Shown here piece by piece: positions 16,191 to 62,907 of a stretch of 64,000 bases of DNA. The stretch lies in assembly GCA_030390025.1 (NCBI GenBank), contig JASTWF010000339.1:372001-436000 (forward strand). The letters run 5' to 3'. A program made the position numbers and the translations under genes. Each line of letters opens with the position of its first letter. The first letter of the stretch is position 1. This DNA is from Squalus acanthias (Eukaryota). The notes under the pieces were generated by a model that saw nothing but the letters and a program-made list of their open reading frames with translations, did no database searches and was not told where the DNA came from.

Positions 16191-16200
16191 AGTTATATTG

Positions 16201-29287: not shown

Positions 29288-29319
29288 GTGCCTGGAGCTA
29301 AGCCAGCTGGGATACTTGA

Positions 29320-32878: not shown

Positions 32879-33264
32879 GGGGCCGGGGATTCTCCTCAGT
32901 GTGTAGCCACTGGTGTCGCTTCAGGTTCTTGTAGATTTTGAAGCTCTTTCAGAACATTTAGAAGGTCTGTCATCAGTGTGAACTCACTGGGGTGCCAGCA
33001 GATTGGAGGAGCGACTGAATCAGGTCCTGATGAATCGCGTAACTCTGTCAGATCTTGACGTGATATTTGGTTTGAGCTTCCTGTCTGTAAATGCTCCACT
33101 TCTAAAACCCTGTAAAAGGAGTGCAGAAAGGGTAAGGAGGGAGCAGGAATTTTTTTGGCTTTTTTTCCCTCAAAGAACAAACAGGGTCGAGCCGGTCCCA
33201 ATGGTGTCCAGCCATGCCCACAATAACCAGCGGGCCAGAAACAGCCCAATCCACCTCACTGACT

Positions 33265-34583: not shown

Positions 34584-34910
34584 GGAGCAGTGCAGAGGGA
34601 ACTTTACTCTGCACTGTGCTTTACTCCCTCAGCACTGCACTGGAGTGGCAGCACAGAGTTTTGGACTCAAGTCTCTGGAGTGGGACTTCAACCCACAACC
34701 TTCTGACTCAGAGGCGAGAGTGCTACCGCCTGAGCCACGGCTGACACTATATATCTAACCCGTGCTGTACCTGTCCTGGGAGTGTTTGATGGGACAGTGT
34801 AGAGGGAGCTTTTCTCTGTATCTAACCTGTCCTGGGAGTGTTTGATGGGACAGTGTAGAGGGAGCTTTACTCTGTATCTAACCTGTGCTGTAATTTGCCC
34901 TGGAAGTGTT
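34584..34910 (+). repeat. Short (~3 monomer) array of the 67-bp satellite with a SINE head inserted at 34612-34747 (minus)
   Basis: ggagcagtgcagagggaactttactctgca | reverse SINE tRNA head | tctaacccgtgctgtacctgtcctgggagtgtttgatgggacag... Confidence 0.75.
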
Positions 34911-39900: not shown

Positions 39901-41482
39901 CTGCCCTGGGAGAGTTTGATGGGACAGTGTAGAGCGAGCTTTACTCTGTATGTAACCCGCGCTGTACCTTCCCTGGGAGTGTTTGATGGGACAGTGTAGA
40001 GGGAGCTTTACTCTGTATCTAACCCGTGCTGAGCCTGCCCTGGGAGTGTTTGATGGGACAGTGTAGAGGGAGCTTTACTCTGTATGTAACCTGTGCTGTA
40101 CCTGCCCTGGGAGTGTTTGCTGGGACAGTGTAGAGGGAGCTTTTCTCTGAATCTAACCCGTGCTGTACCTACCCTGGGAGTGATTGATGGGAATGTGTAG
40201 AGGGGGCTTTACTCTGTATCTAAACCATGCTGTACCTGCACTGGGAGTGTTTGATGGGACAGTGTAGAGTCAGCGTTACTCTGTATTTAACCCCTGCTGT
40301 ACCTGCCCTGGGAGTGTTTGATGGGACTGTGTAGAGGGAGCTTTACTCTGTATCTAACACGTACTGTACCTGCCCTGGGAGTTTTTGATGCAACAGTGTA
40401 GAGGGAGCTTTACTCTGTATCTAACCAGTGATGTACCTGCCCTGGCAGTGTTTGATGGGACAGTGTGGAGGGAGCTTTACTCTGTATCTAACCAGTGCTG
40501 TACCTGCCCTGGGAGTGTTTGATGGGACAGTGTAGAGGGAGCTTTACTCTGTATATAACCCGTACTATACCTGCTCCAGGAGTGTTTGATTGCACAGTGT
40601 AGAGCAAGCTTTACACTGTATCTAACCCGTGCTGTACCTGCCCTGGGAGTGTTTGATGGGACAGTGTAGAGGGAGCTTTCCTCTGTATCTAACCAGTGCT
40701 GTACCTGCTCTGCGAGAGTTTGATGGGACAGTGCAGAGGGGGTTTTACTCTGTATCTACCCCGTGCTGTACCTGCCCGGGGAGTGTTTGATGGGACAGTT
40801 TCGAGCGAGTTTTACAATGTATCTACCCCGTGCTGTACCTGCCCTGGGAGTGTTTGATGGGATCTTGTCGATGGAGTTTTACTCTGTATCTAACCTGTGC
40901 TGTACCTGCCCTGGGAGTGTTTGATGGGAGAATGTAGAGGGAGTTTTACTCTGTATCTAACCAGTGCTGTACCTGCCCTGTGAATGTTTGATGGGGCAGT
41001 GTAGTGGGAGCTTTACTCTGTATCTAACCCATGCTGTACCTGCCCTGGGAGTGTTTGATGGGACAGTGTGGTGGGAGCTTTACTCTGTATCTAACCTGTG
41101 CTGTACCTGCTCTGGGAGAGTTTGATGGGACAGTGCAGAGGGAGTTTTACTCTGTATCTAACCCATGCTTTTCCTGCCCTTGGAGTGTTTGATGGGATTG
41201 TGTCGATGGAGCTTTATTCTGTATCTAAGCTGTGCTGTACCTGCTCTGGGAGAGTTTGATGGGACAGTGCAGAGGGCGTTTTACTCTGTATCTAACCCAT
41301 GCTTTTCCTGCCCTTGGAGTGTTTGATGGGACAGTGTAGAGGGAGCTTTAAATCGGTATCTAACCCGTGCTGTACCTGCCCTGGGAGTGTTTGATGGGAC
41401 AATGTAGAGGGAGCTTTACTCTGTATCTAACCAGTGCTGTACCTGCCCTGGCAGTGTTTGATGGGACAGTGTAGAGGGAGCT

Positions 41483-42686
41483 GGCATGGGTGGAGGATTG
41501 GTTATCTAACAGGAAGCAGAGAGTTGGGATAAATGGTTCATTCTCGGACTGGCAACCAGTAGCCAGTGGTGTTCCGCAGGGGTCGGTGCTGGGTCCCCAA
41601 CTCTTTACAATTTGTATTAACGATTTGGAGGAGGGGACCGAGTGTAACATATCAAAGTTTGCAGATGATACAAAGATGGGAGGGAAAGTAGAGAGTGAGG
41701 AGGACATAAAAAACCTACAAGGGGATATAGACAGGCTGGGTGAGTGGGCAGAGATTTCGCAGATGCAATACAATATTGGAAAATATGAGGTTCTGCACTT
41801 TGGCAGGAAAAATCAGAGAGCAAGTTATTATCTTAATGGCGAGAAACTGGAAAGTACTGCAGTACAAAGGGATCTGGGGGTCTTGGTGCAAGAAAATCAA
41901 AAAGTTAGTGTGCAGGTGCAGCAGGTGATCAAGAAAGCCAATGGAATATTGGCTTTTATTGCTAGGGGGATAGAATATAAAAACAGGGAGGTATTGCTGC
42001 AGTTGTATAGGGTATTGGTGAGACCGCACCTGGAGTACTGCATACAGTTTTGGTGTCCATACTTAAGAAAAGACATACTTGCTCTCGAGGCAGTACAAAG
42101 AAGGTTCACTCGGTTAATTCCGGGGATGAGGGGGTGGACATACGAGGAGAGGTTGAGTAGATTGGGACTCTACTCATTGGAGTTCAGAAGAATGAGAGGC
42201 GATCTTATTGAAACATATAAGATTGTGAAGGGGCTTGATCGGGTGGACGCGGTGAGGATGTTCCCAATGATGGGTGAAACTAGAACTAGGGGACATAATC
42301 TTAGAATAAGGGGCTCCTCTTTCAAAACTGAGATGAGGAGAAACTTTTTCACTCAGAGGGTAGTGGGTCTGTGGAATTTGCTACCCCAGGAAGCTGTGGA
42401 AGCTACTTCATTAAATAAATTTAAAACAGAAATAGACCGTTTCCTAGAAGTAAAGGGAATCAGGGGTTATGGGGAGCGGGCTGGAAATTGGACATGAGTT
42501 TGAGTTCGGATCGGTCGAGGCCCTGTGGGTGGCGGAGCGGGCCCAGGGGCCGAGTGGCCTGGTCCTGCTCCTACTTCTTGTGCTCTTTAGAGTTGAGGTT
42601 GGATCAGATCAACCATGATCTCATTGAATGGCGGAGCAGGCTCGAGGGGCCAATTGGTCTACTCCTGCTCCTATTTCTTATGTTCT
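41483..42686 (+). mobile_element. Young 5'-truncated CR1 inserted in the satellite
   Basis: Uninterrupted 335-aa RT/C-terminal ORF. Splits a monomer at gggagct|...|tactctgtatc. Tail ttcttatgttct. Confidence 0.95.
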
Positions 42687-44947
42687 TACTCTGTATCTAA
42701 CCAGTGCTGTACCTGCCCTGGCAGTGTTTGATGGGACAGTGTAGAGGGAGCTTTACTCTGTATCTAACCGATGCTGTACCTGCCCTGGGAGAGTTTGATG
42801 GGACAGTGTAGAGGGAGCTTTACTCTGTATATAACCCGTGCTATACCTGCTCCAGGAGTGTTTGATTGCACAGTGTAGAGCGAGCTTTACTCTGTATTTA
42901 ACCCATGCTGTACCTGCCCTGTGAGTGTTTGATTGGACAGTGTAGTGGGAGCTGTACTCTGTATCCAATCCGTGCTGTACCAACCCCGGGAGTGTTTGAT
43001 GGGATAGTATAGAGGGAGCTTTACTCTGTATATAACCCGTGCTATACCTGCTCCAGGTGTGTTTGATTGCATAGTGCAGAGCGAGCTTTACTCTGTTTCT
43101 AACCCGTGCTGTACCTACCCTGGGAGTGTTTGGTGGGACAATGTAAAGGGAGCTTTACTCTGTATCTTACCCGTGCTGTACCTGCCCTGGGAGTGTTTCA
43201 TGGGACAGTGTAGTGGGAGCTTTACTCTGTATCTAACCCGTGCTGTACCTTCCCGGGGAGTGTTTGATGGGAGATTGTGTAGAGGGAGCTTTACTCTGTG
43301 TCTAACCCGTGCTGTACCTGCCCTGGGAGTTTTTGATGGGACAGTATAGAGCGAGCTTTACTCTGTATCTAACCCATGCAGGACCTGCCCTGCGAGTGTT
43401 TGATGGGACAGTATAGAGGGAGCTTTACTCTGTACCTAAGCCATGCTGTACATGCCCTAGGAGTGTTTGATGGGATAGTGTAAAGGGACCTTCACTCTGT
43501 ATGTAACCCGCACTGTACCTTCCCTGGGAGTGTTTGATGGGACAGTGTAGAGGGAGCTTTACTCTGTATCTAACCCGTGCTGTACCTTCCCTGGGAGTGT
43601 TTGATGGGACAGTGTAGAGGGAGCTTTACTCTGTATTTAACCCGTGCTGTACCTGCCCTGGGATTGTTTGATGGGACAGTGTGGAGGGAGGTTTACTCTG
43701 TATCTAAACCATGCTGTACCTGCCCTAGTAGTGTTTTATGAGATAGTGTAAAGGTAGCTTTACTCTGTATCTAACCCGTGCTGTACCTTGCCTGGGAGTG
43801 TTTGATGGGACCATGTAGAGGGAGCTTTACTCTGTATCTAACACGTACTGTACCTGCCCTGGGAGTTTTTGATGCAACAGTGTAGAGGGAGCTTTACTCT
43901 GTATCTAACCAGTGATGTACCTGCCCTGGCAGTGTTTGATGGGACAGTGTGGAGGGAGCTTTACTCTGTATCTAACCAGTGCTGTACCTGCCCTGGGAGT
44001 GTTTGATGTGACAGTGTAGAGGGAGCTTTACTCTGTATATAACCCGTGCTATACCTGCTCCAGGAGTGTTTGATTGCACAGTGTAGAGCGAGCTTTACTC
44101 TGTATCTAACCCGTGCTGTACCTGCCCTGGGAGTGTTTGATGGGACAGTGTAGAGGGAGCTTTCCTCTGTATCTAACCAGTGCTGTACCTGCTCTGCGAG
44201 AGTTTGATGGGACAGTGCAGAGGGGGTTTTACTCTGTATCTACCCCGTGCTGTACCTGCCCGGGGAGTGTTTGATGGGACAGTATAGAGCGAGTTTTACT
44301 ATGTATCTACCCCGTGCTGTACCTGCCCTGGGAGTGTTTGATGGGATCTTGTCGATGGAGTTTTACTCTGTATCTAACCAGTGCTGTACCTGCCCTGTGA
44401 ATGTTTGATGGGGCAGTGTAGTGGGAGCTTTACTCTGTATCTAACCTGTGCTGTACCTGCTCTGGGAGAGTTTGATGGGACAGTGCAGAGGGAGTTTTAC
44501 TCTGTATCTAACCCATGCTTTTCCTGCCCTTGGAGTGTTTGATGGGACAGTGTAGAGAGAGCTTTACTCTGTATCTAACCTATGCTGTACCTGCCCTGTG
44601 AGTGTTTGATGGGACAGTGCAGAGGGAGCTTTAAATCGGTATCTAACCCGTGCTGTCCCTGCCCTGGGAGTGTTTGATGGGACAGTGTAGAGGGAGCTTT
44701 ACTCTGTATCTAACCCGTGCTGTACCTATCCTGGGAGTGTTTGATGGGACAGTGTAAAGGGAGCTTTACTCTGTATGTATCCCACGCTGTTCCTTCCCTG
44801 GGAGTGTTTGCTGGGACAGTGTAGAGGGAGCTTTGCTCTATATCTCAACCATGCTGTACCTGCCCTAGTAGTGTTTTATGAGATAGTGTAAAGGTAGCTT
44901 TACTCTGTATGCAACTGCGCTGTACCTTGCCTGGGAGTGTTTGATGG

Positions 44948-47171
44948 AATTGAGAGGTCGCACAACACCAGGTTATAGTCCAACAGTTTTAATTGAAATC
45001 ACAAGCTTTCGGAGCTATCGATTGCTCCTTCCTCAGGTGAAGTAAATTAGATACAGAATTGCCAAAGCATATATAGATAGAAAACAAAGCATGTGTACCT
45101 TACAATTGCAGACCACTAAATTAAATCATCCTGACTATCTGCCGAGGTGTGATAAAGTTAATTAAGTCAGCCAGGAAGGTACCACATCAAAGACATAGCA
45201 AGATACAACTGAGACAATGAGGTGTAGTCGCAGGGGTTCTAATGTGTCAAAAGCTGCCGTCTGTATGTAAAACGAAAAGCTTTAAAATTTTTACTTTTTT
45301 ACTGGGAAAATTTTTACTTTTTTACTGGGAATCACATCTGTGAACAAGCTAACGACGACTCGAGTCCGGATCACGTCATGTATCGTGACATCAACCCAAG
45401 ATCCCGATTGAGACCGTCTTCATGAGTGCGGAACTTGGCTATCAGTTTCTGCTCGATGATTTTGCGTTGTCGTGTGTTTCTAAGGTTGCCTTGGAGAACG
45501 CTTACCCGCAGATCCGAGGCTGAATGTCCTTGACTGCTGAAGTGTTCCCCGACTGGGAGGTAACAATCCTGCCTGGCGATTGTTGCGCGGTGCTCATTCA
45601 TACGTTGTTTCAGTGTCTGCATGGTCTCGCCGATATACCATGCCGCGGTGCATTCTTTCCTGCAACGTATGAGGTAGACAACGTTGGCCGAGTCACATGA
45701 GTATGTACCATGTACCTGGTGGGTAGTGTCCTCACGTGTGATGGTGGTATCTGTGTTGATGATCTGGCATGTCTTGCAGAGTTTGCCATGGCAGGGTTGT
45801 GTGGTGTCGTGGTCGCTGTTATCCTGAAAGCTGGGTAATTTGCTGCAAACGATGGTACTTCTGAGGTTAGGCGGCTGTTTGAAGGCAAGTAGTGGAGGCG
45901 TGGGGATGGCCTTAGCGAGGTGTTTGTCGTCATCGATGACATGTTGAAGGCTGCGAAGAACATGGCGTAGTTTCATCGCTCCGGGGAAGTACTGGACGAC
46001 GTAGGGTACCCTGTTGGTTGTGTCCCGTGTTTGCCTTCTGAGGAGGTCTATGCGATTTTTCGCTGTGGCCCGTCGGAACTGTCGATCGATGAGTCGAGCG
46101 TCATATCCCGTTCTTACGAGGGCGTTTTTCAGCGTCCGTAGGTGTCCATCGCGTTCCTCCTCGTCTGAGCAGATCCTGTGTATTCGCAGGGCTTGTCCAT
46201 AGGGGATGGCTTCCTTAACATGGTTAGGGTGGAAGCTGGAGAAGTGGAGCATCGTGAGGTTGTCCGTGGGCTTGCGGTAGAGTGAAGTGCTGAGGTGTCC
46301 GTCTTTGATGGAGATTCGTGTGTCCAGGAATGAGACCGATTCTGAGGAGTAGTCCATGGTGAGTTTGATGGTGGGATGGAACTTGTTTATGTTATCGTGT
46401 AGTCTTTTCAGTGATCCTTCGCCATGGGTCCAAAGGAAGAAAATGTCGTCGATGTATCTGGTGTACAGCGTTGGCTGGAGGTCCTGTGCAGCGAAGAAGT
46501 CTTGCTCGAACTTGTGCATGAAGATGTTGGCGTATTGGGGTGCGAATTTGGTCCCCATGGCTGTTCCGTGTGTTTGGGTAAAAAAATGGTTGTCGAAGGT
46601 GAAGACATTGTGGTCAAGGATGAAGCGGATGAGTTGTAAGATGGCGTCTGGAGATTGGCTGTTGTTGATGTTGAGTACTGAGGCTGTTGCAGCGATGCCG
46701 TCATCGGGGGGATACTGGTGTAGAGTGCCGATACGTCCATCGTGGCAAGAAGTGTTCCTGGTTCAACTGGTCCGTGGGTGCTGAGTTTCTGTAAGAAGTC
46801 TGTAGTGTCGCGACAGAAGCTGGGGGTTCCCTGTACGATGGGTTTCAGAATGCCCTCGACGTATCCAGAGAGGTTCTCACACAGGGTTCCATTGCCTGAT
46901 ACGATAGGACGTCCGGGTGTGTTGGCTTTGTGTATCTTTGGGAGGCAGTAGAAGTCTCCCACGCGGGGAGTACGTGGGATGAGAGCGCGTAGGATGTTTT
47001 GAAGGTCTGGATCGAAGGTCTTGATCAGTCTATTGAGTTGGCGGGTGTGTTCTTTGGTCGGATCTGCGGGTAGCTGTCTGTAGTGTTCCTGGTTGTCCAG
47101 TTGTCGGTATGCTTCTTTACAATAGTCCGTTCTGTTCTGTATGACGATGGCTCCTCCTTTGTCCGCTGGTT
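44948..47171 (-). mobile_element. Penelope-like element (Neptune type) copy 1, 5'-truncated, 1-bp frameshift
   Basis: RT (KPADKGG, LPKIHK, GTAMG, RYIDD), CHGKLCKTC linker, GIY-YIG (NVVYLIRC...YIGET). TSD tttgatgg. Confidence 0.95.
44999..45040 (-). ncRNA. Minimal hammerhead ribozyme in pLTR, copy 1
   Basis: Minus strand tcac-CTGAGGA-a-GGAGC aatcgata GCTCC-GAAA-gctt-gtga. Confidence 0.8.
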
Positions 47172-50043
47172 TTTGATGGGACAGTGTAGAGGGAGCTTAA
47201 CTCTGTATCTAAACCATGCTGTACCTGCCCTAGTAGTGTTTTATGAGATAGTGTAAAGGTAGCTTTACTCTGTATGTAACTGCGCTGTACCTTGCCTGGA
47301 AGTGTTTGATGGTACCGTGTAGAGGGAGCTTTCCTCTGTATCTCACCTGTGCTGCACCTGCCCTGGGAGTGTTTGATGGGACAGTGTAGAGGGAGCTTTA
47401 CTCTGTATCTAACCAGTGCTGTACCTGCCCTGGGAGTGTTTGATGGGACAGTGGAGAGGGAGCTTTACTCTGTATCTAACACGTCCTGTACCTGCCCTGT
47501 GAGTGTTTGATGGGACAGTGTAGTGGGAGCTGTACTCTGTATCCAATCCGTGCTGTACCAGCCCCGGGAGTGTTTGATGGGACAGTGTAGTGGGAGCTTT
47601 ACTCTGTATCTAACCCGTGCTGTACCTTCCCGGGGTTTGATGGGAGATTGTGTAAAGGGAGCTTCACTCTGTATGTAACCCGCGCTGTACCTTCCCTGGG
47701 AGTGTTTGATGGGACAGTGTAGAGGGAGCTTTACTCTGTATCTGACCCGTGCTGTACCTGCCCTGGGAGTGTTTGATGGGACAGTGCAGAGGGAGCTTTA
47801 CTCTGTATCTAACCCGTGCTGTACCTTGCCTTGGACTGTTTGATGGGACGGTGTAGAGGGAGCTTTACTCTGTATCTAACCAGCGCTGTACCTGCCCTGG
47901 GAGTGTTTGATGGGACAGTGTAGAGGGAGCTTTACTCTGTATCTAACCAGTGATGTACCTGCCCTGGCAGTGTTTGATGGGACAGTGTGGAGGGAGCTTT
48001 ACTCTGTATCTAACCAGTGCTGTACCTGCCCTGGGAGTGTTTGATGGGACAGTGTAGTGGGAGCTTTACTCTGTATCTAACCCGTGCTGTACCTTCCCGG
48101 GGAGTGTTTGATGGGAGATTGTGTAGAGGGAGCTTTACTCTGTGTCTAACCCGTGCTGTACCTGCCCTGGGAGTTTTTGATGGGACAGTATAGAGCCAGC
48201 TTTACTCTGTATCTAACCCATGCAGGACCTGCCCTGCGAGTGTTTGATGGGACAGTATAGAGGGAGCTTTACTCTGTACCTAAGCCATGCTGTACATGCC
48301 CTAGGAGTGTTTGATGGGATAGTGTAAAGGGACCTTCACTCTGTATGTAACCCGCACTGTACCTTCCCTGGGAGTGTTTGATGGGACAGTGTAGAGGGAG
48401 CTTTACTCTGTATCTAACCCGTGCTGTACCTTCCCTGGGAGTGTTTGATGGGACAGTGTAGAGGGAGCTTTACTCTGTATTTAACCCGTGCTGTACCTGC
48501 CCTGGGATTGTTTGATGGGACAGTGTGGAGGGAGGTTTACTCTGTATCTAAACCATGCTGTACCTGCCCTAGTAGTGTTTTATGAGATAGTGTAAAGGTA
48601 GCTTTACTCTGTATCTAACCCGTGCTGTACCTTGCCTGGGAGTGTTTGATGGGACCATGTAGAGGGAGCTTTACTCTGTATCTAACACGTACTGTACCTG
48701 CCCTGGGAGTTTTTGATGCAACAGTGTAGAGGGAGCTTTACTCTGTATCTAACCAGTGATGTACCTGCCCTGGCAGTGTTTGATGGGACAGTGTGGAGGG
48801 AGCTTTACTCTGTATCTAACCAGTGCTGTACCTGCCCTGGGAGTGTTTGATGGGACAGTGTAGAGGGAGCTTTACTCTGTATATAACCCGTGCTATACCT
48901 GCTCCAGGAGTGTTTGATTGCACAGTGTAGAGCGAGCTTTACTCTGTATCTAACCCGTGCTGTACCTGCCCTGGGAGTGTTTGATGGGACAGTGTAGAGG
49001 GAGCTTTCCTCTGTATCTAACCAGTGCTGTACCTGCTCTGCGAGAGTTTGATGGGACAGTGCAGAGGGGGTTTTACTCTGTATCTACCCCGTGCTGTACC
49101 TGCCCGGGGAGTGTTTGATGGGACAGTATAGAGCGAGTTTTACTATGTATCTACCCCGTGCTGTACCTGCCCTGGGAGTGTTTGATGGGATCTTGTCGAT
49201 GGAGTTTTACTCTGTATCTAACCTGTGCTGTACCTGCCCTGGGAGTGTTTGATGGGAGAATGTAGAGGGAGTTTTACTCTGTATCTAACCAGTGTTGTAC
49301 CTGCCCTCTGAATGTTTGATGGGGCAGTGTAGTGGGAGCTTTACTCTGTATCTAACCTGTGCTGTACCTGCTCTGGGAGAGTTTGATGGGACAGTGCAGA
49401 GGGAGTTTTACTCTGTATCTAACCCATGCTTTTCCTGCCCTTGGAGTGTTTGATGGGATTGTGTCGATGGAGCTTTACTCTGTATCTAAGCTGTGCTGTA
49501 CCTGCTCTGGGAGAGTTTGATGGGACAGTGCAGAGGGAGTTTTACTCTGTATCTAACCCATGCTTTTCCTGCCCTTGGAGTGTTTGATGGGACAGTGTAG
49601 AGAGAGCTTTACTCTGTATCTAACCTATGCTGTACCTGCCCTGTGAGTGTTTGATGGGACAGTGCAGAGGGAGCTTTAAATCGGTATCTAACCCGTGCTG
49701 TCCCTGCCCTGGGAGTGTTTGATGGGACAGTGTAGAGGGAGCTTTACTCTGTATCTAACCCGTGCTGTACCTATCCTGGGAGTGTTTGATGGGACAGTGT
49801 AAAGGGAGCTTTACTCTGTATGTATCCCACGCTGTTCCTTCCCTGGGAGTGTTTGCTGGGACAGTGTAGAGGGTGCTTTGCTCTATATCTCAACCATGCT
49901 GTACCTACCCTAGTAGTGTTTTATGAGATAGTGTAAAGGTAGCTTTACTCTGTATGCAACTGCGCTGTACCTTGCCTGGGAGTGTTTGATGGAATTGAGA
50001 GGTCGCACAACACCAGGTTATAGTCCAACAGTTTTAATTGAAA

Positions 50044-50085
50044 TCACAAGCTTTCGGAGCTATCGATTGCTCCTTCCTCAGGTGA
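50044..50085 (-). ncRNA. Minimal hammerhead ribozyme in pLTR, copy 2
   Basis: Identical to 44999-45040. Confidence 0.8.
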
Positions 50086-50415
50086 AGTAAATTAGATACA
50101 GAATTGCCAAAGCATATATAGATAGAAAACAAAGCATGTGTACCTTCCAATTGCAGACCACTAAATTAAATCATCCTGACTATCTGCCGAGGTGTGATAA
50201 AGTTAATTAAGTCAGCCAGGAAGGTACCACATCAAAGACATAGCAAGATACAACTGAGACAATGAGGTGTAGTCGCAGGGGTTCTAACGTGTCAAAAGCT
50301 GCCGTCTGTATGTAAAACGAAAAGCTTTAAAATTTTTACTTTTTTACTGGGAAAATTTTTACTTTTTTACTGGGAATCACATCTGTGAACAAGCTAACGA
50401 CGACTCGAGTCCGGA

Positions 50416-52215
50416 TCACGTCATGTATCGTGACATCAACCCAAGATCCCGATTGAGACCGTCTTCATGAGTGCGGAACTTGGCTATCAGTTTCTGCTCG
50501 ATGATTTTGCGTTGTCGTGTGTTTCTAAGGTTGCCTTGGAGAACGCTTACCCGCAGATCCGAGGCTGAATGTCCTTGACTGCTGAAGTGTTCCCCGACTG
50601 GGAGGTAACAATCCTGCCTGGCGATTGTTGCGCGGTGCTCGTTCATACGTTGTTTCAGTGTCTGCATGGTCTCGCCGATGTACCATGCCGCGGTGCATTC
50701 TTTCCTGCAACGTATGAGGTAGACAACGTTGGCCGAGTCACATGAGTATGTACCATGTACCTGGTGGGTAGTGTCCTCACGTGTGATGGTGGTATCTGTG
50801 TTGATGATCTGGCATGTCTTGCAGAGTTTGCCATGGCAGGGTTGTGTGGTGTCGTGGTCGCTGTTATCCTGAAAGCTGGGTAATTTGCTGCGAACGATGG
50901 TACTTCTGAGGTTAGGCGGCTGTTTGAAGGCAAGTAGTGGAGGCGTGGGGATGGCCTTAGCGAGGTGTTTGTCGTCATCGATGACATGTTGAAGGCTGCG
51001 AAGAACATGGCGTAGTTTCATCGCTCCGGGGAAGTACTGGACGACGTAGGGTACCCTGTTGGTTGTGTCCCGTGTTTGCCTTCTGAGGAGGTCTATGCGA
51101 TTTTTCGCTGTGGCCCGTCGGAACTGTCGATCGATGAGTCGAGCGTCATATCCCGTTCTTACGAGGGCGTTTTTCAGCGTCCGTAGGTGTCCATCGCGTT
51201 CCTCCTCGTCTGAGCAGATCCTGTGTATTCGCAGGGCTTGTCCATAGGGGATGGCTTCTTTAACATGGTTAGGGTGGAAGCTGGAGAAGTGGAGCATCGT
51301 GAGGTTGTCCGTGGGCTTGCGGTAGAGTGAAGTGCTGAGGTGTCCGTCTTTGATGGAGATTCGTGTGTCCAGGAATGAGACCGATTCTGAGGAGTAGTCC
51401 ATGGTGAGTTTGATGGTGGGATGGAACTTGTTTATGTTATCGTGTAGTCTTTTCAGTGATCCTTCGCCATGGGTCCAAAGGAAGAAAATGTCGTCGATGT
51501 ATCTGGTGTACAGCGTTGGCTGGAGGTCCTGTGCAGCGAAGAAGTCTTGCTCGAACTTGTGCATGAAGATGTTGGCGTATTGGGGTGCGAATTTGGTCCC
51601 CATGGCTGTTCCGTGTGTTTGGGTAAAAAAATGGTTGTCGAAGGTGAAGACATTGTGGTCAAGGATGAAGCGGATGAGTTGTAGGATGGCGTCTGGAGAT
51701 TGGCTGTTGTTGATGTTGAGTACTGAGGCTGTTGCAGCGATGCCGTCATCGTGGGGGATACTGGTGTAGAGTGCCGATACGTCCATCGTGGCAAGGAGTG
51801 TTCCTGGTTCAACTGGTCCGTGGGTGCTGAGTTTCTGTAAGAAGTCTGTAGTGTCGCGACAGAAGCTGGGGGTTCCCTGTACGATGGGTTTCAGAATGCC
51901 CTCGACGTATCCAGAGAGGTTCTCACACAGGGTTCCATTGCCTGATACGATAGGACGTCCGGGTGTGTTGGCTTTGTGTATCTTTGGGAGGCAGTAGAAG
52001 TCTCCCACGCGGGGAGTACGTGGGATGAGAGCGCGTAGGATGTTTTGAAGGTCTGGATCGAAGGTCTTGATCAGTCTATTGAGTTGGCGGGTGTGTTCTT
52101 TGGTCGGATCTGCGGGTAGCTGTCTGTAGTGTTCCTGGTTGTCCAGTTGTCGGTATGCTTCTTTACAATAGTCCGTTCTGTTCTGTATGACGATGGCTCC
52201 TCCTTTGTCCGCTGG
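50416..52215 (-). CDS. Penelope-like RT + GIY-YIG endonuclease ORF (N-terminally truncated, ~600 codons)
   Basis: The 530-aa track ORF extends upstream without stops (PADKGGAIVIQNRTDYCKEAYRQL...) to the satellite junction. No native start codon. Confidence 0.85.
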   Translation of the reverse strand, partial: PADKGGAIVIQNRTDYCKEAYRQLDNQEHYRQLPADPTKEHTRQLNRLIKTFDPDLQNILRALIPRTPRVGDFYCLPKIHKANTPGRPIVSGNGTLCENLSGYVEGILKPIVQGTPSFCRDTTDFLQKLSTHGPVEPGTLLATMDVSALYTSIPHDDGIAATASVLNINNSQSPDAILQLIRFILDHNVFTFDNHFFTQTHGTAMGTKFAPQYANIFMHKFEQDFFAAQDLQPTLYTRYIDDIFFLWTHGEGSLKRLHDNINKFHPTIKLTMDYSSESVSFLDTRISIKDGHLSTSLYRKPTDNLTMLHFSSFHPNHVKEAIPYGQALRIHRICSDEEERDGHLRTLKNALVRTGYDARLIDRQFRRATAKNRIDLLRRQTRDTTNRVPYVVQYFPGAMKLRHVLRSLQHVIDDDKHLAKAIPTPPLLAFKQPPNLRSTIVRSKLPSFQDNSDHDTTQPCHGKLCKTCQIINTDTTITREDTTHQVHGTYSCDSANVVYLIRCRKECTAAWYIGETMQTLKQRMNEHRATIARQDCYLPVGEHFSSQGHSASDLRVSVLQGNLRNTRQRKIIEQKLIAKFRTHEDGLNRDLGLMSRYMT

Positions 52216-55200
52216 TTTTTGATGGGACAGTGTAGAGGGAGCTTAACTCTGTATCTAAACCATGCTGTACCTGCCCTAGTAGTGTTTTATGAGATAGTGT
52301 AAAGGTAGCTTTACTCTGTATGTAACTGCGCTGTACCTTGCCTGGAAGTGTTTGATGGTACCGTGTAGAGGGAGCTTTCCTCTGTATCTCACCTGTGCTG
52401 CACCTGCCCTGGGAGTGTTTGATGGGACAGTGTAGAGGGAGCTTTACTCTGTATCTAACCAGTGCTGTACCTGCCCTGGGAGTGTTTGATGGGACAGTGG
52501 AGAGGGAGCTTTACTCTGTATCTAACACGTCCTGTACCTGCCCTGTGAGTGTTTGATGGGACAGTGTAGTGGGAGCTGTACTCTGTATCCAATCCGTGCT
52601 GTACCAGCCCCGGGAGAGTTTGATGGGACAGTGTAGTGGGAGCTTTACTCTATATCTAACCCGTGCTGTACCTTCCCGGGGAGTGTTTGATGGGAGATTG
52701 TGTAAAGGGAGCTTCACTCTGTATGTAACCCGCGCTGTACCTTCCCTGGGAGTGTTTGATGGGACAGTGTAGAGGGAGCTTTACTCTGTATCTGACCCGT
52801 GCTGTACCTGCCCTGGGAGTGTTTGATGGGACAGTGCAGAGGGAGCTTTACTCTGTATCTAACCCGTGCTGTACCTTGCCTTGGACTGTTTGATGGGACC
52901 GTGTAGAGGGAGCTTTACTCTGTATCTAACCAGTGCTGTACCTGCCCTGGGAGTGTTTGATGGGACAGTGTAGAGGGAGCTTTCCTCTGCATCTAACCAG
53001 TGCTGTACCTGCTCTGGGAGAGTTTGATGGGACAGTGCAGAGGGTGTTTTACTCTGTATCTACCCCGTGCTGTACCTGCCCGGGGAGTGTTTGATGGGAC
53101 AGTACAGAGCGAGTTTTACTATGTATCTACCCCGTGCTGTATCTGCCCTGGGAGTGTTTGATGGGATCTTGTCGATGGAGTTTTACTCTGTATCTAACCT
53201 GTGCTGTACCTGCCCTGGGAGTGTTTGATGGGGCAGTGCAGTGGGAGCTTTACTCTGTATCTAACCCGTGCTGTACCTGCCCTGGGAGTGATTGATGTGA
53301 CACTGCAGAGGTCGCTTTACTCTGTATCTAACCCTTGCTGTACCTGCCCTGGGAGTGTTTGATGGGACAGTGTCGAGGGAGCTTTAATCTGTATCTAACC
53401 TGTGCTGTACCTGCCCTGTGAGTGTGTGATGGGACAGTGTAGAGGGAGCTTTAATCGGTATCTAACCTGTGCTGTCCCTGTCCTGGGAGTGTTTGATAGG
53501 ACAGTGTGGAGGGAGCTTTACTCTGTATCTAACCCGTGCTGTACCTATCCTGGGAGTGAATGGTGGGACAATGTAGAGGGAGCTTTACTCTGTATCTAAC
53601 CCGTGCTGTACGTGCCCTAGGAGTGTTTGATGGGATAATGTCGAGGGAGCTTTACTCTGTATCTAACCCGTGCTGTACGTGCCCTAGGAGTGTTTGATGG
53701 GATAATGTCGAGGGAACTTTACTCTGTATCTAACCCATGCAGGACTTGCCCTGCAAGTGTTTGATGGGACAGTGTAGAGGGAGCTTTACTCTGTATCTAA
53801 ACCATGCTGTACCTGCCCTAGTAGTGTTTTATGAGATAGTGTAAAGGTAGCTTTACTTTGTATGCAACTGCGCTGTAGCTGCCCTGGGAGTTTTTGATGC
53901 AACAGTGTCGAGGAAGCTTTACTCTGTATCGAACCCGTGCTGTACCTGCCCTGGCAGTGTTTGATGGGACAGTGTAGAGGGAGCTTTTCTCTGTATCTAA
54001 CCCGTGCTGTACCTGCTCCAGGAGTGTTTGATTGCACAGTGTAGAGCGAGCTTTACTCTGTATTTAACCCGTGCTGTACCTGCCCTGGAAGTGTTTGATG
54101 GGACAGTGTAGAGGGAGCTGTACTCTGTATCCAATCCGTGCTGTACCAGCCCCGGGAGTGTTTGAAGGGATAGTATAGAGCGAGCTTTACTCTGTATCTA
54201 ACCCGTGCTGTACCTACCCTGGGAGTGTTTGGTGGGACAATGTAGAGCGAGCTTTACTCTGTATCTTACCCGTGCTGTACCTACCCTGGGAGTGTTTGAT
54301 GGGACAGTGTAGTGGGAGCTTTACTCGGCAACCCATGCTGTACCTTCCCGGGGACTGTTTGATGGGAGATTGTGTGGAGGGAGCTTTACTCTGTATCTAA
54401 CCCGTGCTGTCTTTACCCTGGGAGTGTTTGGTGGGACAATGTAGAGGGAGCTTTGCTCTGTATCTAAACCATGCTGCACGTGCCCTAGCAGTGTTTGATG
54501 GGATAATGTTTTTGGAGTTTTACTCTGTATCTAACCCATGCAGGACCTGCCCTGCGAGTGTTTGATGGGACAGTGTAGAGGGAGCTTTACTCTGTATCTA
54601 ACCAGTGCTGTACCTGCTCTGGGAGAGTTTGATGGGACAGTGCAGAGGGGGTTTTCCTCTGTATCTACCCCGTGCTGTACCTACTCTGGGAGTGTTTGAT
54701 GGGACAGTGTAGTGGGAGCTTTACTCGGCAACCCATGCTGTACCTTCCCGGGGACTGTTTGATGGGAGATTGTGTGGAGGGAGCTTTACTCTGTATCTAA
54801 CCCGTGCTGTCTTTACCCTGGGAGTGTTTGGTGGGACAATGTAGAGGGAGCTTTGCTCTGTATCTAAACCATGCTGCACGTGCCCTAGCAGTGTTTGATG
54901 GGATAATGTAGATGGAGTTTTACTCTGTATCTAACCCATGCTGTACCTGCCCTGCGAGTGTTTGATGGGACAGTGTAGAGGGAGCTTTACACTGTATCTA
55001 ACCAGTGCTGTACCTGCTCTGGGAGAGTTTGATGGGACAGTGCAGAGGGGGTTTTCCTCTGTATCTACCCCGTGCTGTACCTGCCTGGGGAGTGTTTGAT
55101 GGGACAGTATAGAGCAAGTTTTACTATGTATCTACCTCGTGCTGTACCTGCCCTGGGAGTGTTTGATGGGATCTTGTCGATGGAGTTTTACTCTGTATCT

Positions 55201-55773
55201 AACCTGTGCTGTACCTGCCCTGGGAGTGTTTGATGGGAGAATGTAGAGGGAGTTTTACTCTGTATCTAACCAGTGCTGTACCTGCCCTGTGAATGTTTGA
55301 TGGGGCAGTGTAGTGGGAGCTTTACTCTGTATCTAACCCGTGCTGTCCCTGCCCTGGGAGTGTTTGATGGGACAGTGTAGAGGGAGCTTTACTCTGTATC
55401 TAACCCGTGCTGTACCTGCCCTGGGAGTGTTTGATGGGACAGTGTTGAGGGAGCTTTTTACTCTGTATCTAACCCGTGCTGTACCTGCCCTGGGAGTGTT
55501 TGATGGGACAGTGTAGAGGGAGCTTTGCTCAGTATTTAACCCGTGCTTTAACTGCTCTGGGACTGTTTGATGGGATAGTGTAAAGGGTGCTTTACTCTGT
55601 ATGTATCCCACGCTGTTCCTTCCCTGGGAGTGTTTGCTGGGACAGTGTAGAGGGAGCTTTGCTCTATATCTCAACCATGCTGTACCTGCCCTAGTAGTGT
55701 TTTATGAGATAGTGTAAAGGTAGCTTTACTCTGTATGCAACTGCGCTGTACCTTGCCTGGGAGTGTTTGATGG

Positions 55774-57997
55774 AATTGAGAGGTCGCACAACACCAGGTT
55801 ATAGTCCAACAGTTTTAATTGAAATCACAAGCTTTCGGAGCTATCGATTGCTCCTTCCTCAGGTGAAGTAAATTAGATACAGAATTGCCAAAGCATATAT
55901 AGATAGAAAACAAAGCATGTGTACCTTACAATTGCAGACCACTAAATTAAATCATCCTGACTATCTGCCGAGGTGTGATAAAGTTAATTAAGTCAGCCAG
56001 GAAGGTACCACATCAAAGACATAGCAAGATACAACTGAGACAATGAGGTGTAGTCGCAGGGGTTCTAACGTGTCAAAAGCTGCCGTCTGTATGTAAAACG
56101 AAAAGCTTTAAAATTTTTACTTTTTTACTGGGAAAATTTTTACTTTTTTACTGGGAATCACATCTGTGAACAAGCTAACGACGACTCGAGTCCGGATCAC
56201 GTCATGTATCGTGACATCAACCCAAGATCCCGATTGAGACCGTCTTCATGAGTGCGCAACTTGGCTATCAGTTTCTGCTCGATGATTTTGCGTTGTCGTG
56301 TGTTTCTAAGGTTGCCTTGGAGAACGCTTACCCGCAGATCCGAGGCTGAATGTCCTTGACTGCTGAAGTGTTCCCCGACTGGGTGGTAACAATCCTGCCT
56401 GGCGATTGTTGCGCGGTGCTCATTCATACGTTGTCTCAGTGTCTGCATGGTCTCGCCGATGTACCATGCCGCGGTGCATTCTTTCCTGCAACGTATGAGG
56501 TAGACAACGTTGGCCGAGTCACATGAGTATGTACCATGTACCTGGTGGGTAGTGTCCTCACGTGTGATGGTGGTATCTGTGTTGATGATCTGGCATGTCT
56601 TGCAGAGTTTGCCATGGCAGGGTTGTGTGGTGTCGTGGTCGCTGTTATCCTGAAAGCTGGGTAATTTGCTGCGAACGATGGTACTTCTGAGGTTAGGTGG
56701 CTGTTTGAAGGCAAGTAGTGGAGGCGTGGGGATGGCCTTAGCGAGGTGTTTGTCGTCATCGATGACATGTTGAAGGCTGCGAAGAACATGGCGTAGTTTC
56801 ATCGCTCCGGGGAAGTACTGGACGACGTAGGGTACCCTGTTGGTTGTGTCCCGTGTTTGCCTTCTGAGGAGGTCTATGCGATTTTTCGCTGTGGCCCGTC
56901 GGAACTGTCGATCGATGAGTCGAGCGTCATATCCCGTTCTTACGAGGGCGTTTTTCAGCGTCCGTAGGTGTCCATCGCGTTCCTCCTCGTCTGAGCAGAT
57001 CCTGTGTATTCGCAGGGCTTGTCCATAGGGGATGGCTTCTTTAACATGGTTAGGGTGGAAGCTGGAGAAGTGGAGCATCGTGAGGTTGTCCGTGGGCTTG
57101 CGGTAGAGTGAAGTGCTGAGGTGTCCGTCTTTGATGGAGATTCGTGTGTCCAGGAATGAGACCGATTCTGAGGAGTAGTCCATGGTGAGTTTGATGGTGG
57201 GATGGAACTTGTTTATGTTATCGTGCAGTCTTTTCAGTGATCCTTCGCCATGGGTCCAAAGGAAGAAAATGTCGTCGATGTATCTGGTGTACAGCGTTGG
57301 CTGGAGGTCCTGTGCAGCGAAGAAGTCTTGCTCGAACTTGTGCATGAAGATGTTGGCGTATTGGGGTGCGAATTTGGTCCCCATGGCTGTTCCGTGTGTT
57401 TGGGTAAAAAAATGGTTGTCGAAGGTGAAGACATTGTGGTCAAGGATGAAGCGGATGAGTTGTAGGATGGCGTCTGGAGATTGGCTGTTGTTGATGTTGA
57501 GTACTGAGGCTGTTGCAGCGATGCCGTCATCGGGGGGATACTGGTGTAGAGTGCCGATACGTCCATTGTGGCAAGAAGTGTTCCTGGTTCAACTGGTCCG
57601 TGGGTGCTGAGTTTCTGTAAGAAGTCTGTAGTGTCGCGACAGAAGCTGGGGGTTCCCTGTACGATGGGTTTCAGAATGCCCTCGACGTATCCAGAGAGGT
57701 TCTCACACAGGGTTCCATTGCCTGATACGATAGGACGTCCGGGTGTGTTGGCTTTGTGTATCTTTGGGAGGCAGTAGAAGTCTCCCACGCGGGGAGTACG
57801 TGGGATGAGAGCGCGTAGGATGTTTTGAAGGTCTGGATCGAAGGTCTTGATCAGTCTATTGAGTTGGCGGGTGTGTTCTTTGGTCGGATCTGCGGGTAGC
57901 TGTCTGTAGTGTTCCTGGTTGTCCAGTTGTCGGTATGCTTCTTTACAATAGTCCGTTCTGTTCTGTATGACGATGGCTCCTCCTTTGTCCGCTGGTT
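55774..57997 (-). mobile_element. Penelope-like element copy 3, same frameshift as copy 1
   Basis: Same junctions and TSD; tcatcggggggatac versus tcatcgtgggggatac in copy 2. Confidence 0.95.
55825..55866 (-). ncRNA. Minimal hammerhead ribozyme in pLTR, copy 3
   Basis: Identical to 44999-45040. Confidence 0.8.
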
Positions 57998-60900
57998 TTT
58001 GATGGGACAGTGTAGAGGGAGCTTAACTCTGTATCTAAACCATGCTGTACCTGCCCTAGTAGTGTTTTATGAGATAGTGTAAAGGTAGCTTTACTCTGTA
58101 TGTAACTGCGCTGTACCTTGCCTGGAAGTGTTTGATGGTACCGTGTAGAGGGAGCTTTCCTCTGTATCTCACCTGTGCTGCACCTGCCCTGGGAGTGTTT
58201 GATGGGACAGTGTAGAGGGAGCTTTACTCTGTATCTAACCAGTGCTGTACCTGCCCTGGGAGTGTTTGATGGGACAGTGGAGAGGGAGCTTTACTCTGTA
58301 TCTAACACATCCTGTACCTGCCCTGTGAGTGTTTGATGGGACAGTGTAGTGGGAGCTGTACTCTGTATCCAATCCGTGCTGTACCAGCCCCGGGAGTGTT
58401 TGATGGGACAGTGTAGTGGGAGCTTTACTCTGTATCTAACCCGTGCTGTACCTTCCCGGGGTTTGATGGGAGATTGTGTAAAGGGAGCTTCACTCTGTAT
58501 GTAACCCGCGCTGTACCTTCCCTGGGAGTGTTTGATGGGACAGTGTAGAGGGAGCTTTACTCTGTATCTGACCCGTGCTGTACCTGCCCTGGGAGTGTTT
58601 GATGGGACAGTGCAGAGGGAGCTTTACTCTGTATCTAACCCGTGCTGTACCTTGCCTTGGACTGTTTGATGGGACCGTGTAGAGGGAGCTTTACTCTGTA
58701 TCTAACCAGCGCTGTACCTGCCCTGGGAGTGTTTGATGGGACAGTGTAGAGGGAGCTTTCCTCTGCATCTAACCAGTGCTGTACCTGCTCTGGGAGAGTT
58801 TGATGGGACAGTGCAGAGGGTGTTTTACTCTGTATCTACCCCGTGCTGTACCTGCCCGGGGAGTGTATGATGGGACAGTACAGAGCGAGTTTTACTATGT
58901 ATCTACCCCGTGCTGTATCTGCCCTGGGAGTGTTTGATGGGATCTTGTCGATGGAGTTTTACTCTGTATCTAACCTGTGCTGTACCTGCCCTGGGAGTGT
59001 TTGATGGGGCAGTGCAGTGGGAGCTTTACTCTGTATCTAACCCGTGCTGTACCTGCCCTGGGAGTGATTGATGTGACAGTGCAGAGGTCGCTTTACTCTG
59101 TATCTAACCCTTGCTGTACCTGCCCTGGGAGTGTTTGATGGGACAGTGTCGAGGGAGCTTTAATCTGTATCTAACCTGTGCTGTACCTGCCCTGTGAGTG
59201 TGTGATGGGACAGTGTAGAGGGAGCTTTAATCGGTATCTAACCTGTGCTGTCCCTGTCCTGGGAGTGTTTGATAGGACAGTGTGGAGGGAGCTTTACTCT
59301 GTATCTAACCCGTGCTGTACCTATCCTGGGAGTGAATGGTGGGACAATGTAGAGGGAGCTTTACTCTGTATCTAACCCGTGCTGTACGTGCCCTAGGAGT
59401 GTTTGATGGGATAATGTCGAGGGAACTTTACTCTGTATCTAACCCATGCAGGACTTGCCCTGCAAGTGTTTGATGGGACAGTGTAGAGGGAGCTTTACTC
59501 TGTATCTAAACCATGCTGTACCTGCCCTAGTAGTGTTTTATGAGATAGTGTAAAGGTAGCTTTACTCTGTATGCAACTGCGCTGTAGCTGCCCTGGGAGT
59601 TTTTGATGCAACAGTGTCGAGGGAGCTTTACTCTGTATCGAACCCGTGCTGTACCTGCCCTGGCAGTGTTTGATGGGACAGTGTAGAGGGAGCTTTTCTC
59701 TGTATCTAACCCGTGCTGTACCTGCTCCAGGAGTGTTTGATTGCACAGTGTAGAGCGAGCTTTACTCTGTATTTAACCCGTGCTGTACCTGCCCTGGAAG
59801 TGTTTGATGGGACAGTGTAGAGGGAGCTGTACTCTGTATCCAATCCGTGCTGTACCAGCCCCGGGAGTGTTTGAAGGGATAGTATAGAGCGAGCTTTACT
59901 CTGTATCTAACCCGTGCTGTACCTACCCTGGGAGTGTTTGGTGGGACAATGTAGAGCGAGCTTTACTCTGTATCTTACCCGTGCTGTACCTACTCTGGGA
60001 GTGTTTGATGGGACAGTGTAGTGGGAGCTTTACTCGGCAACCCATGCTGTACCTTCCCGGGGACTGTTTGATGGGAGATTGTGTGGAGGGAGCTTTACTC
60101 TGTATCTAACCCGTGCTGTCTTTACCCTGGGAGTGTTTGGTGGGACAATGTAGAGGGAGCTTTGCTCTGTATCTAAACCATGCTGCACGTGCCCTAGCAG
60201 TGTTTGATGGGATAATGTAGATGGAGTTTTACTCTGTATCTAACCCATGCTGTACCTGCCCTGCGAGTGTTTGATGGGACAGTGTAGAGGGAGCTTTACA
60301 CTGTATCTAACCAGTGCTGTACCTGCTCTGGGAGAGTTTGATGGGACAGTGCAGAGGGGGTTTTCCTCTGTATCTACCCCGTGCTGTACCTGCCTGGGGA
60401 GTGTTTGATGGGACAGTATAGAGCAAGTTTTACTATGTATCTACCTCGTGCTGTACCTGCCCTGGGAGTGTTTGATGGGATCTTGTCGATGGAGTTTTAC
60501 TCTGTATCTAACCTGTGCTGTACCTGCCCTGGGAGTGTTTGATGGGAGAATGTAGAGGGAGTTTTACTCTGTATCTAACCAGTGCTGTACCTGCCCTGTG
60601 AATGTTTGATGGGGCAGTGTAGTGGGAGCTTTACTCTGTATCTAACCCGTGCTGTCCCTGCCCTGGGAGTGTTTGATGGGACAGTGTAGAGGGAGCTTTA
60701 CTCTGCATCTAACCCGTGCTGTACCTGCCCTGGGAGTGTTTGATGGGACAGTGTTGAGGGAGCTTTTTACTCTGTATCTAACCCGTGCTGTACCTGCCCT
60801 GGGAGTGTTTGATGGGACAGTGTAGAGGGAGCTTTGCTCAGTATTTAACCCGTGCTTTAACTGCTCTGGGACTGTTTGATGGGATAGTGTAAAGGGTGCT

Positions 60901-61427
60901 TTACTCTGTATGTAACCCGCGCTGTACCTTCCCTGGGAGTGCTTGATGGGACAGTGTCGAGGAAGCTTTACTCTGTATCTAACCCGTGCTGTACCTGCCT
61001 GGGGAGTGTTTGATGGGAGATTGTGTAGAGGGAGCTTAACTCTGTATCTAAGTTTAGTGATCCCGGGTGTGTAACCGAGACCTTCCCTGGATACCAAGGC
61101 TGGGAGAGGCACTCTGGAAGGGCTGGGGAGCTGGGACTTGTCCGTAAGAGTAACCGACGGTACGAGAACTGAAATAATCTCGAGTTAGAAAGGAGAAAAG
61201 GCCCAAAAATGGAGCAGTCGGTAACAAGACATTAATTAGTCTCCTCTTATCTTGGAGACATCAAATATCAACCCTCTGTGTTATTTGAAATATCAAAATA
61301 TTAAACTCCAGCCCAGTTACAGGGGTTATTAACATCAGCAGAAACAAACTCCACCTTTCAGAATGAACATGATTCAGTCCGAGATGTGATTAACAGCAGC
61401 AATAACAGCAGAATCCAACCCCTGCAG

Positions 61428-61961
61428 TCACTTGTGAACTCGCTGGTGTGTCAGCAGGTGGGATGACTGAGTGAATCCCTTCCCACACTCAGAGCAGGTG
61501 AACGGCCTCTCCCCAGTGTGATTGCGATGATGAATTTCCAGCTGGGACGGGGAAATGAATCCCTTCCCGCAGTCCTCACATTTACCCGGTTTCTCCGTGG
61601 TGCGGGTGTCCTCGTGTCTCTCCAGGTTGGACGATCAGTTGAAGCCTCGTCACACACACAACACGTGTACGGTTTCTCCCCGCTGTGAATGGTGCGATGT
61701 TTTTTCTGGCTGTATAACTGGTTAAAGCTCTTTCCACAGGCAGTGCACTGGAACACTCTCACTCGGGTGTGTGTGTCTCGGTGCTTTTCCAGTCACACTG
61801 ATGTTTGAAATCTTTTCCCACAGACAGAACAGACAAACATTTCTCCTTCCACATTCAAAGGCTGATGATATTCAGGTCCTGAGTAATCGAGTGACTCTGT
61901 CAGATTTTGACGTGATGTTTGGTTTCAGTTTCCCGTCTGCAAATCCTCCCCTTCTAAAACC
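61428..61961 (-). pseudogene. C2H2 ZNF pseudogene (second subfamily)
   Basis: Acceptor ttttacAG at 61962-61963, then LEGEDLQTGN*NQ...[19 protein letters not shown]...FQCTACGKSFNQLYSQKKHRTIH. Contains stops and a frameshift. Confidence 0.8.
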
Positions 61962-62154
61962 CTGTAAAAGGAGTTTACAAAACTCATTACTGTAAGTACA
62001 GGACAGAAATTCAGAACAGACAATTCCAGTTTCTAAAGAACATTCTTTCCTCTCTTGTTCCTCCAAAGCTGTAAATCCCCATCCCACACATTGGATTTTA
62101 GCACAGGGAGGAGTGACAAACACACCACACGTCTCAAGATAGTTTCTCCACCAA

Positions 62155-62364
62155 CTCTGGTTGGGTTCTGTTCTGCACTCACTGGTTCCCCTCCCTCTCC
62201 TCCCCTGAAGGTGCTGACTCTGGCTGGGTTCAGTTCTACACTCACTGGTTCTCCTCCCCTGAAGGTGCTGACTCTGGCTGGGTTCAGTTCTGCACTCACT
62301 GGTTTTCCCTCCCTCTCCTCCCCTGAAGGTGCTGACTCTGGCTGGGTTCAGTTCACTCACTGGG
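62155..62364. repeat. Intronic minisatellite, 54-64 bp unit, ~3.5 copies
   Basis: cccctgaaggtgctgactctggctgggttcagttc(t)...cactcactgg repeated. Confidence 0.85.
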
Positions 62365-62369
62365 ACCCT

Positions 62370-62720
62370 GAAGCGTCGCCCACTCGTGGTTCCTTTACAA
62401 AGATGGCTGCGCATGCGCTCTACCGCTCGTTCAGGCATGTTTGGGAAACACAAACCCTCAGCTTTCCGTTACAAAGATGGCGGCCGTTAACCTGGACCTT
62501 TTACCAGGAAAAAGCCTCCGAGCTGCAAACGGGAAACCTGTCGGTTCTCATTCTGGGCTTGCGCCCTACACCAGGTGTTTATGAAGCTCATCCGCCGGGT
62601 GCTTTACCTGTCTGCGCCCCGCGTTTGTCGCACTCGCCCGGCTCTGATCACAGTGACACTGCGCATGCTCCAAATACAGGCGGGCACTGCGCCTGCGCAC
62701 TGGGCTCCTCCAGTGTGAAT
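62370..62720 (-). promoter_or_regulatory. CpG-rich promoter / first exon of the ZNF pseudogene
   Basis: TGCGCATGCGC at 62408-62418, AAGATGGCGGC (YY1-type) at 62474-62484, further GCGCATG/GCGCCTGCGC at 62660-62700. Homologous to 3170-3310. Confidence 0.65.
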
Positions 62721-62907
62721 GGGGCACATTCTCCCCCGTGGGGCATGCTGGGGAACATTGAAAGTCCCAATTAGTGAATGGAGAATGAGTTTCTGTGATC
62801 CCATTGAGAGAGAATTCATCAATAATTCACACACAAACACCAGTGCACGGGCACTCTGCCATGGTTCAGTCCTGGATGTGATTAATAACAGAATCCAAAC
62901 CCCTGCA

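Follow-up and report, generated by a model that had tools for sequence, protein, structure and literature searches.

In the CEN180 satellite of Arabidopsis, five post-integration duplications of ATHILA elements were described, 8.9-538 kb apart, and they were ascribed to the process generating heterogeneous higher-order repeats (HORs) (bioRxiv 10.1101/2021.05.30.446350). The human composites TELO_Comp, LSAU-BETA and ajax-teucer probably grew in number through unequal crossing over (bioRxiv 10.1101/2021.07.12.451456), and in rye pSc200/pSc250 short heterogeneous arrays and transposons expand jointly by recombination (PMC4857426). Here we analysed a 64,000-nucleotide stretch of the Squalus acanthias genome (assembly GCA_030390025.1, contig JASTWF010000339.1, positions 372,001 to 436,000; hereafter the window), in which three truncated copies of one Penelope-like element (PLE) lie inside a 67-bp satellite array. 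Post-insertion duplication in a satellite is a known kind of event, and this locus is probably a further case of it. As in ATHILA/CEN180, a satellite-inserted retroelement appears to have been copied with its flanks at the DNA level, but here it is a truncated PLE in a 24-kb array within a zinc-finger cluster, the copies are 5-6 kb apart, and nothing at the shark array points to a centromere. The locus resembles the human composites in its tandem units of transposon plus satellite, but those are defined by at least three repeated subunits per unit, whereas the shark locus combines two components, in three copies, and lacks a fixed unit. The joint expansion recalls rye, where it concerns plant subtelomeric heterochromatin at genome scale and mostly long terminal repeat (LTR) elements. 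Unlike the partial tandems of PLEs, the tandem arrangement in the shark arose after insertion.

The copies are all on the minus strand, at 44948..47171 (E1, 2224 bp, 5'-truncated at the PADKG motif), 49993..52217 (E2, 2225 bp) and 55774..57997 (E3, 2224 bp), with start-to-start periods of exactly 5045 and 5781 bp. A preliminary description of the window had given these coordinates, lengths and periods, all of which we reproduced, and its identical 5' truncation points were confirmed by the 40 preceding and 50 following bases, which are the same for all three copies, as are two extra T bases. Its target-site duplication (TSD) was confirmed in part: the 8-mer TTTGATGG flanks each copy on both sides in register, but at seven of its eight bases the element's own native sequence would continue in the same way, as read from a loose contig end of run X8 at 57998. 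The flank may be a TSD, or may partly be a 7-nt microhomology at the 5' junction. There were 15 variable columns among the copies (private to E1 in five cases, to E2 in four and to E3 in six), and pairwise divergence was 0.36-0.49%. Public contigs from 4 of the 24 listed runs (X1, X2, X7 and X8) were aligned to 55520-58140; absent rows of the variant table were not read as identity, and no copy numbers were derived from summed depths. At 57046, 57301, 57494, 57675 and 57717, the three copies agree with one another, yet most contig depth reads another base. All three also have a 23-bp direct duplication in the 3' untranslated part of the element (45284-45331 and its counterparts).

To place the copies in their satellite context, we cut the array (37387-61051, 23.7 kb) into 234 full monomers, whose median pairwise difference was 10. 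On the plus strand, block A1 (42686..44947, 33 full monomers) precedes E1, A2 (47172..49992, 42 monomers) and A3 (52218..55773, 53 monomers) separate the copies, and A4 (57998..61051, 45 full monomers and a partial one) runs to the array end; the duplicated part extends from about 43200 to 60914. Three monomers upstream and 11 downstream are common to all three units in register, and over this extent only do the ordered flanking monomer variants claimed before apply to every copy; the longer shared stretches involve two copies only. Monomers 31-33 of A1, which precede E1, recur ahead of E2 and E3 (in A3 as 51-53). Monomers 8-33 of A1 (from 43205) match 14-42 of A2 with five substitutions and gaps of one and two monomers, A2 carrying the three extra ones, and A3 12-50 matches A4 12-43 with five substitutions and gains of one and six monomers in A3; these four changes of monomer number fall within two-copy blocks. 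The longest in-register run of near-identical monomers was 24, compared with at most 3 in 300 shuffles, and in-register runs of 21, 17, 13, 13 and 11 were tallied.

Both duplication junctions could be placed within the monomers. In A2, monomers 1-11 are those found in all three units, 12-13 form a two-monomer patch, and 14-42 are the copy of A1 8-33, so that junction 1 (47885..48058) passes from monomer 11 through the patch to a monomer of the A1-8 type. The patch is a copy from another part of the array, identical to A2 24-25 and to monomers 46-47 of A0, the array block before A1. Junction 2 (55589..55605) is a 17-bp crossover window in the hybrid monomer A3-51, whose left part is like A4-44 and whose right part is like A1-31. 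Satellite copied upstream of the element amounts to about 185 bp for copy 3 and 1.9 kb for copy 2. There were two duplications, each with its own breakpoints inside monomers. Besides these, A0 45-51 recur as A1 17-23, a seven-monomer block duplication without the element; it is older, and block duplication occurs here without the element.

Under the heterogeneous HOR definition of at least four monomers at least 96% alike (bioRxiv 10.64898/2026.09.17.752431), with near-identity taken as at most two differences per monomer, the monomers lying in such blocks numbered 24/33, 40/42, 47/53 and 43/45 in A1 to A4, compared with 11/61 in A0. The blocks of A1-A4 are thus HORs in the loose sense. A regimented HOR of the alpha-satellite type was rejected, with spacers of 42 and 53 monomers, just 14 common in register, and 17 of the 42 monomers of A2 having any near-identical partner in A3. 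The monomer-level decomposition proposed earlier returned heterogeneous blocks and no regimented unit, and the fixed 5.0-5.8 kb higher-order unit did not hold, given these unequal spacers, the 14 common monomers and the differing breakpoints.

We consider it very probable that a single insertion was followed by passive carriage of the element through two unequal exchanges between misaligned monomers. Target-primed insertion would have taken place at TTTGATGG and ended by a jump at the 7-nt microhomology, an exchange in the 17-bp window would have produced the 5781-bp duplication, and a second, more complex exchange would have produced the 5045-bp duplication, while gain and loss of single monomers would be ongoing. 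Given the sister relationship of copies 1 and 3, the second exchange likely took place between alleles differing in copy number, or had conversion after it. Four derived states unite units 1 and 3, which leaves the middle copy as the outlier and the outer two as sisters: a 1-bp deletion that breaks the frame (46706 in E1, 57532 in E3), at a position where a residue is present in 18 of 22 aligned relatives, His in 16 of them; a CpG loss at 45596/56422, where contigs read G; the loss of 4 bp from monomer 7; and, in monomer 11, a C. Two in-place duplications would make neighbours sisters, so the observed pattern would need allele exchange or conversion, and a simple two-step in-place duplication with neither was ruled out. 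One retrotransposition followed by duplication of multi-kb blocks, as first proposed, agrees with the identical ends, the copied upstream monomers and the in-register runs, and of the two routes offered for it, block exchange was supported, but simple in-place slippage leaves the sister outer copies unexplained.

The triplicated core, from which one edge column was dropped as part of the crossover, has 3158 columns with 21 substitution columns and two indels. Transitions account for 15 of the 21 (p = 0.0004 against 1/3), and seven are C/T or G/A changes at CpG, so that the differences look biological; divergence was similar in all blocks (0.23-0.49%). Several points still weigh against the history given above. 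Residue 521 is Lys in E1 and E2 and Arg in 12 of the 15 relatives with a residue there (three of the 15 being poorly aligned), which conflicts with the tree and would require that the site reverted or that sequence was exchanged within the element. Among the contig pieces listed (at most 500 bp, over 55520-58140), none spans copies or junctions, one haplotype was compared, and the data are compatible with either order of the two duplications and with either allele exchange or conversion.

The strongest competitor, though improbable, is a partial assembly artefact, in which one duplication is real and the third copy comes from two haplotypes joined at junction 1. A sister relationship such as that of the outer copies might also hold between alleles, divergence of 0.2-0.5% is compatible with allelic difference, and the short contig pieces offer no spanning reads. 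But three versions with 4-6 private sites each are impossible from two single-copy haplotypes, the sequence is free of N gaps, and overlap at the junctions is of monomer scale only. The differences are also transition- and CpG-rich, and homopolymer runs agree except for the shared deletion, which merges two G runs. Rather less likely again is an incipient selected centromeric or heterochromatic composite HOR. Most monomers of A1-A4 are in blocks under the HOR definition, and Penelope elements are listed in chordate satellite arrays (bioRxiv 10.64898/2026.09.17.752431), but there are only three copies in unequal units, and the array sits amid zinc-finger genes, which have CpG-rich starts to its left and right. 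The centromere-like composite suggested earlier thus found no support in this 23.7-kb array between C2H2 zinc-finger genes.

Two further possibilities are excluded in practice because upstream monomers were also copied. One is RNA-mediated copying, to which we give very little chance, slightly below that of the centromeric composite; a read-through transcript of element and satellite would be turned into cDNA and inserted anew, as a retrozyme-like unit of giant size. Every copy has a minimal hammerhead motif, retrozymes have been proposed to be non-autonomous PLE derivatives (bioRxiv 10.64898/2026.07.22.740005), and the start of a minus-strand gene lies 1.3 kb past the array. However, cDNA primed at the 3' end of the element predicts one breakpoint there, whereas copying extended 3 and 29 monomers past that end and each breakpoint is within a monomer. 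A non-LTR retrozyme proper, which consists of short non-coding units in tandem that each have a type I hammerhead and are made through RNA, was rejected in the same way, as the units here are 5-6 kb, coding, and have their breakpoints inside satellite monomers. The other possibility, that the element went site-specifically into alike monomer contexts on three independent occasions, has a next to negligible probability. Contigs suggest that the family reuses the same monomer register elsewhere, and the 7-nt microhomology at the truncation point might recur, but the copies have in common the truncation point, the extra T bases and 14 ordered monomer variants, they share differences from the family majority, and other element-to-satellite joints have different truncation points. 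Site-specific insertion, which had been named as the alternative that would overturn a single origin, is therefore false for E1-E3, although it may hold for the family elsewhere.

Under single insertion and passive carriage, the element simply rides along with ordinary satellite turnover, and nothing indicates a function. The idea of a dead element spreading was overstated: one copy became three, these are already 0.36-0.49% apart, and the older block duplication in the same array excludes the element. The value of the element is as a marker: it tags both block duplications, the crossover windows and the subsequent gains and losses of monomers, which gives a base-resolved view of satellite turnover that is useful but expected, while the sister outer copies point to exchange between alleles.

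To identify the element, we used E2, which has a single open frame of 599 codons (50416-52215) from the PADKG motif to the stop. Pfam found a reverse transcriptase (RT; PF00078, 35.9 bits, cut-off 29.6) and, in the last 130 residues, GIY-YIG (PF01541, 23.4 bits, cut-off 22.6). RT followed by a C-terminal GIY-YIG in one open reading frame is what defines the endonuclease-bearing (EN+) PLEs. A CX4CX2C linker, of the kind found in the Neptune clade, lies about 35 residues ahead of VVYLI, and the CCHH endonuclease residues are present: a pair of Cys is located between VVYLI and YIG, and a pair of His lies downstream. In the literature, the CCHH residues are a feature of the EN+ PLE endonuclease, the CX2-5CxxC linker between RT and endonuclease is lacking in Penelope/Poseidon, and Neptune is paraphyletic (PMC8557442). 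With RT, C-terminal GIY-YIG, linker and CCHH all like those of Neptune/Nematis EN+ PLEs (PMC8557442), the element fits a Neptune or Nematis type rather than Penelope/Poseidon, a label that comes from motifs, as none of the 120 relatives listed carries a clade name. The nearest named protein relatives among the matches listed were from Heptranchias perlo (91-92% amino acid identity) and Scyliorhinus torazame (86%), and the single match in the PDB, to an RT, was non-significant (E 0.47). The upstream pseudo-LTR (pLTR) and full length, both required for autonomy, are absent in the copies, which are cut off at PADKG, and the two closest full-length relatives (881-882 aa) carry 275-283 additional N-terminal residues compared with E2, so no copy should be autonomous. 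In contigs of differently labelled organisms (runs X7 and X8), the element matched with 0-4 differences per 70-360 bases, and the family thus seems nearly identical across several labelled species, being young, slow-evolving or horizontally shared. A second, distant Penelope-like family has fragments at 9982-10503 and 26448-27386, with 36-50% amino acid identity to E2.

The contigs also bear on where this family inserts. Part of the stretch was present in 20 of the 24 listed runs, and the best-matching run may be the source sample. Joints were taken as the best 15 of 53, picked by support, and among these, all eight element-to-satellite joints (seven distinct points) land at 57998-58000, which is the register of the window's own insertion. 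Their points in the element are 55794, 55869 (twice), 56042, 56217, 56438, 56607 and 56652; all eight occur in run X1, two also in X2, and none among the joints listed in X7 or X8. Each joint has one or two contigs and a shorter side of 20-26 letters, and is defined by its two sides, not by the junction letters between them. Aligning to this stretch biases joint placement towards 57998-58000, so we simulated 1272 junctions at every register in 19 of A0's 61 monomers, with a placement rule that approximates the tool's. Among the simulated junctions assigned to the right flank, 43-51% came to lie at 57996-58000, or 27-28% with no letters between, giving a rough simulated p of 0.003-0.01 for seven of seven points at one register. 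Two observations speak against exclusive targeting: at 16197-16410, part of the element's pLTR lies in non-satellite DNA, and two loose X7 contig ends have non-satellite flanks.

The joints in the public contigs suggest that one cut site may be preferred, with or without enrichment in the satellite; such joints could also arise where a general preference in cutting encounters a very abundant satellite. That the family repeatedly inserts at the TTTGATGG register of the satellite, above what genome share and a loose preference would give, is a possibility of low but appreciable probability. PLEs of Neptune/Nematis type are reported to have an insertion bias towards repeats, and the targets given are microsatellites such as (TA)n, (CA)n and (C)n and, for spike-moss elements, 28S rDNA (PMC8557442); the target here differs in being a 67-bp satellite. 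A PLE aimed at this satellite was not found in our literature search, which included PMC11406177 and had most subscription journals outside it. If the targeting were true, arrays would then multiply element copies by unequal exchange, and it would matter since target choice of PLEs is poorly understood; the fixed cut register would be testable in vitro, and the Cys linker has been proposed to mediate target choice (PMC8557442).

At the 3' end of the element in all three copies, we found a minimal type I hammerhead motif (minus strand, 44999..45040, identical at +5045 and +10826). It consists of the core CUGAGGA, an extra A, a 5-bp helix II, GAA, a palindromic AGCU and a 4-bp helix I, with the predicted cut after CUU at 45003. 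The published descriptor (extra base 9/10.1, G10.1-C11.1 pair, palindromic 15.2-16.2) applies to E1-E3, and a minimal hammerhead in the terminal repeat is a further likeness to EN+ PLEs (PMC4209133). In a 56-nt fold, helices I and II were formed, but z was -1.57 and 17 of 200 shuffles were as good. An Rfam search of the whole window at E ≤ 1 gave no hammerhead family and seven weak hits outside the locus of the three copies, and a co-fold of two motif copies was uninformative, giving a dimer via the helix II region and not an active double hammerhead. The minimal hammerhead of PLEs showed no monomer cleavage and low dimer cleavage in vitro (PMC4209133), and an anole PLE had no RNA reads ending at the ribozyme cut site (PMC11167929). 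A ribozyme every 5-6 kb, as claimed before, was right for the motif, which is in each copy, but the ribozyme-array reading is unsupported and overstated because a ribozyme of the minimal type depends on a second copy as partner and shows weak cleavage in vitro (PMC4209133).

The pLTR piece at 16197-16410 is short, has an inverted-repeat structure, includes the hammerhead, and is bordered by a 13-bp duplication; the inverted paralogue at 30310-30380 is its empty site. Contig depth has a peak over the element's last 96 bases (boundary at 55869, element position 96), several joints begin at this boundary, and the pLTR piece has the same one at 16279. These observations suggest that the E1-E3 family includes a short mini-element that bears a hammerhead and is very abundant. 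Another hammerhead motif, at 28296, is unlike that of E1-E3.

As for the setting, the window contains clustered C2H2 zinc-finger repeats and many fragments of long interspersed nuclear elements (LINEs); C2H2 zinc-finger genes with CpG-rich starts flank the array on either side. The array begins with A0 (37387..41482, plus strand), 61 monomers with about 86% matches to the 67-bp unit, and between A0 and A1 lies a 3' fragment of an ordinary LINE (41483..42686, plus strand, RT frame 41475-42497), which was not duplicated and may be of CR1 type. No description of the 67-bp satellite was found in the literature search (same coverage as above, so that one in the style of Repbase may exist), and in pattern scans the satellite had 0 matches in metagenome contigs and 0 in viral contigs, while the pLTR motif had 0 in metagenome contigs. 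Beyond the array, a short C2H2 zinc-finger gene or pseudogene (61400..62800, minus strand) with a CpG-rich 5' end points towards it and is a possible source of read-through into it; its frame shifts near a GT/CA tract (61400-62000), which indicates a pseudogene or a sequence error. A few decayed 67-bp monomers lie at 34588-34911, beside a CpG-rich zinc-finger start and 2.5 kb from the main array. Elsewhere in the window, 13264-18229 and 28523-33127 form an inverted segmental duplication of a zinc-finger gene with its flanks, which is 86-89% identical in the gene part and 96% identical across 1.8 kb of LINE-derived sequence.

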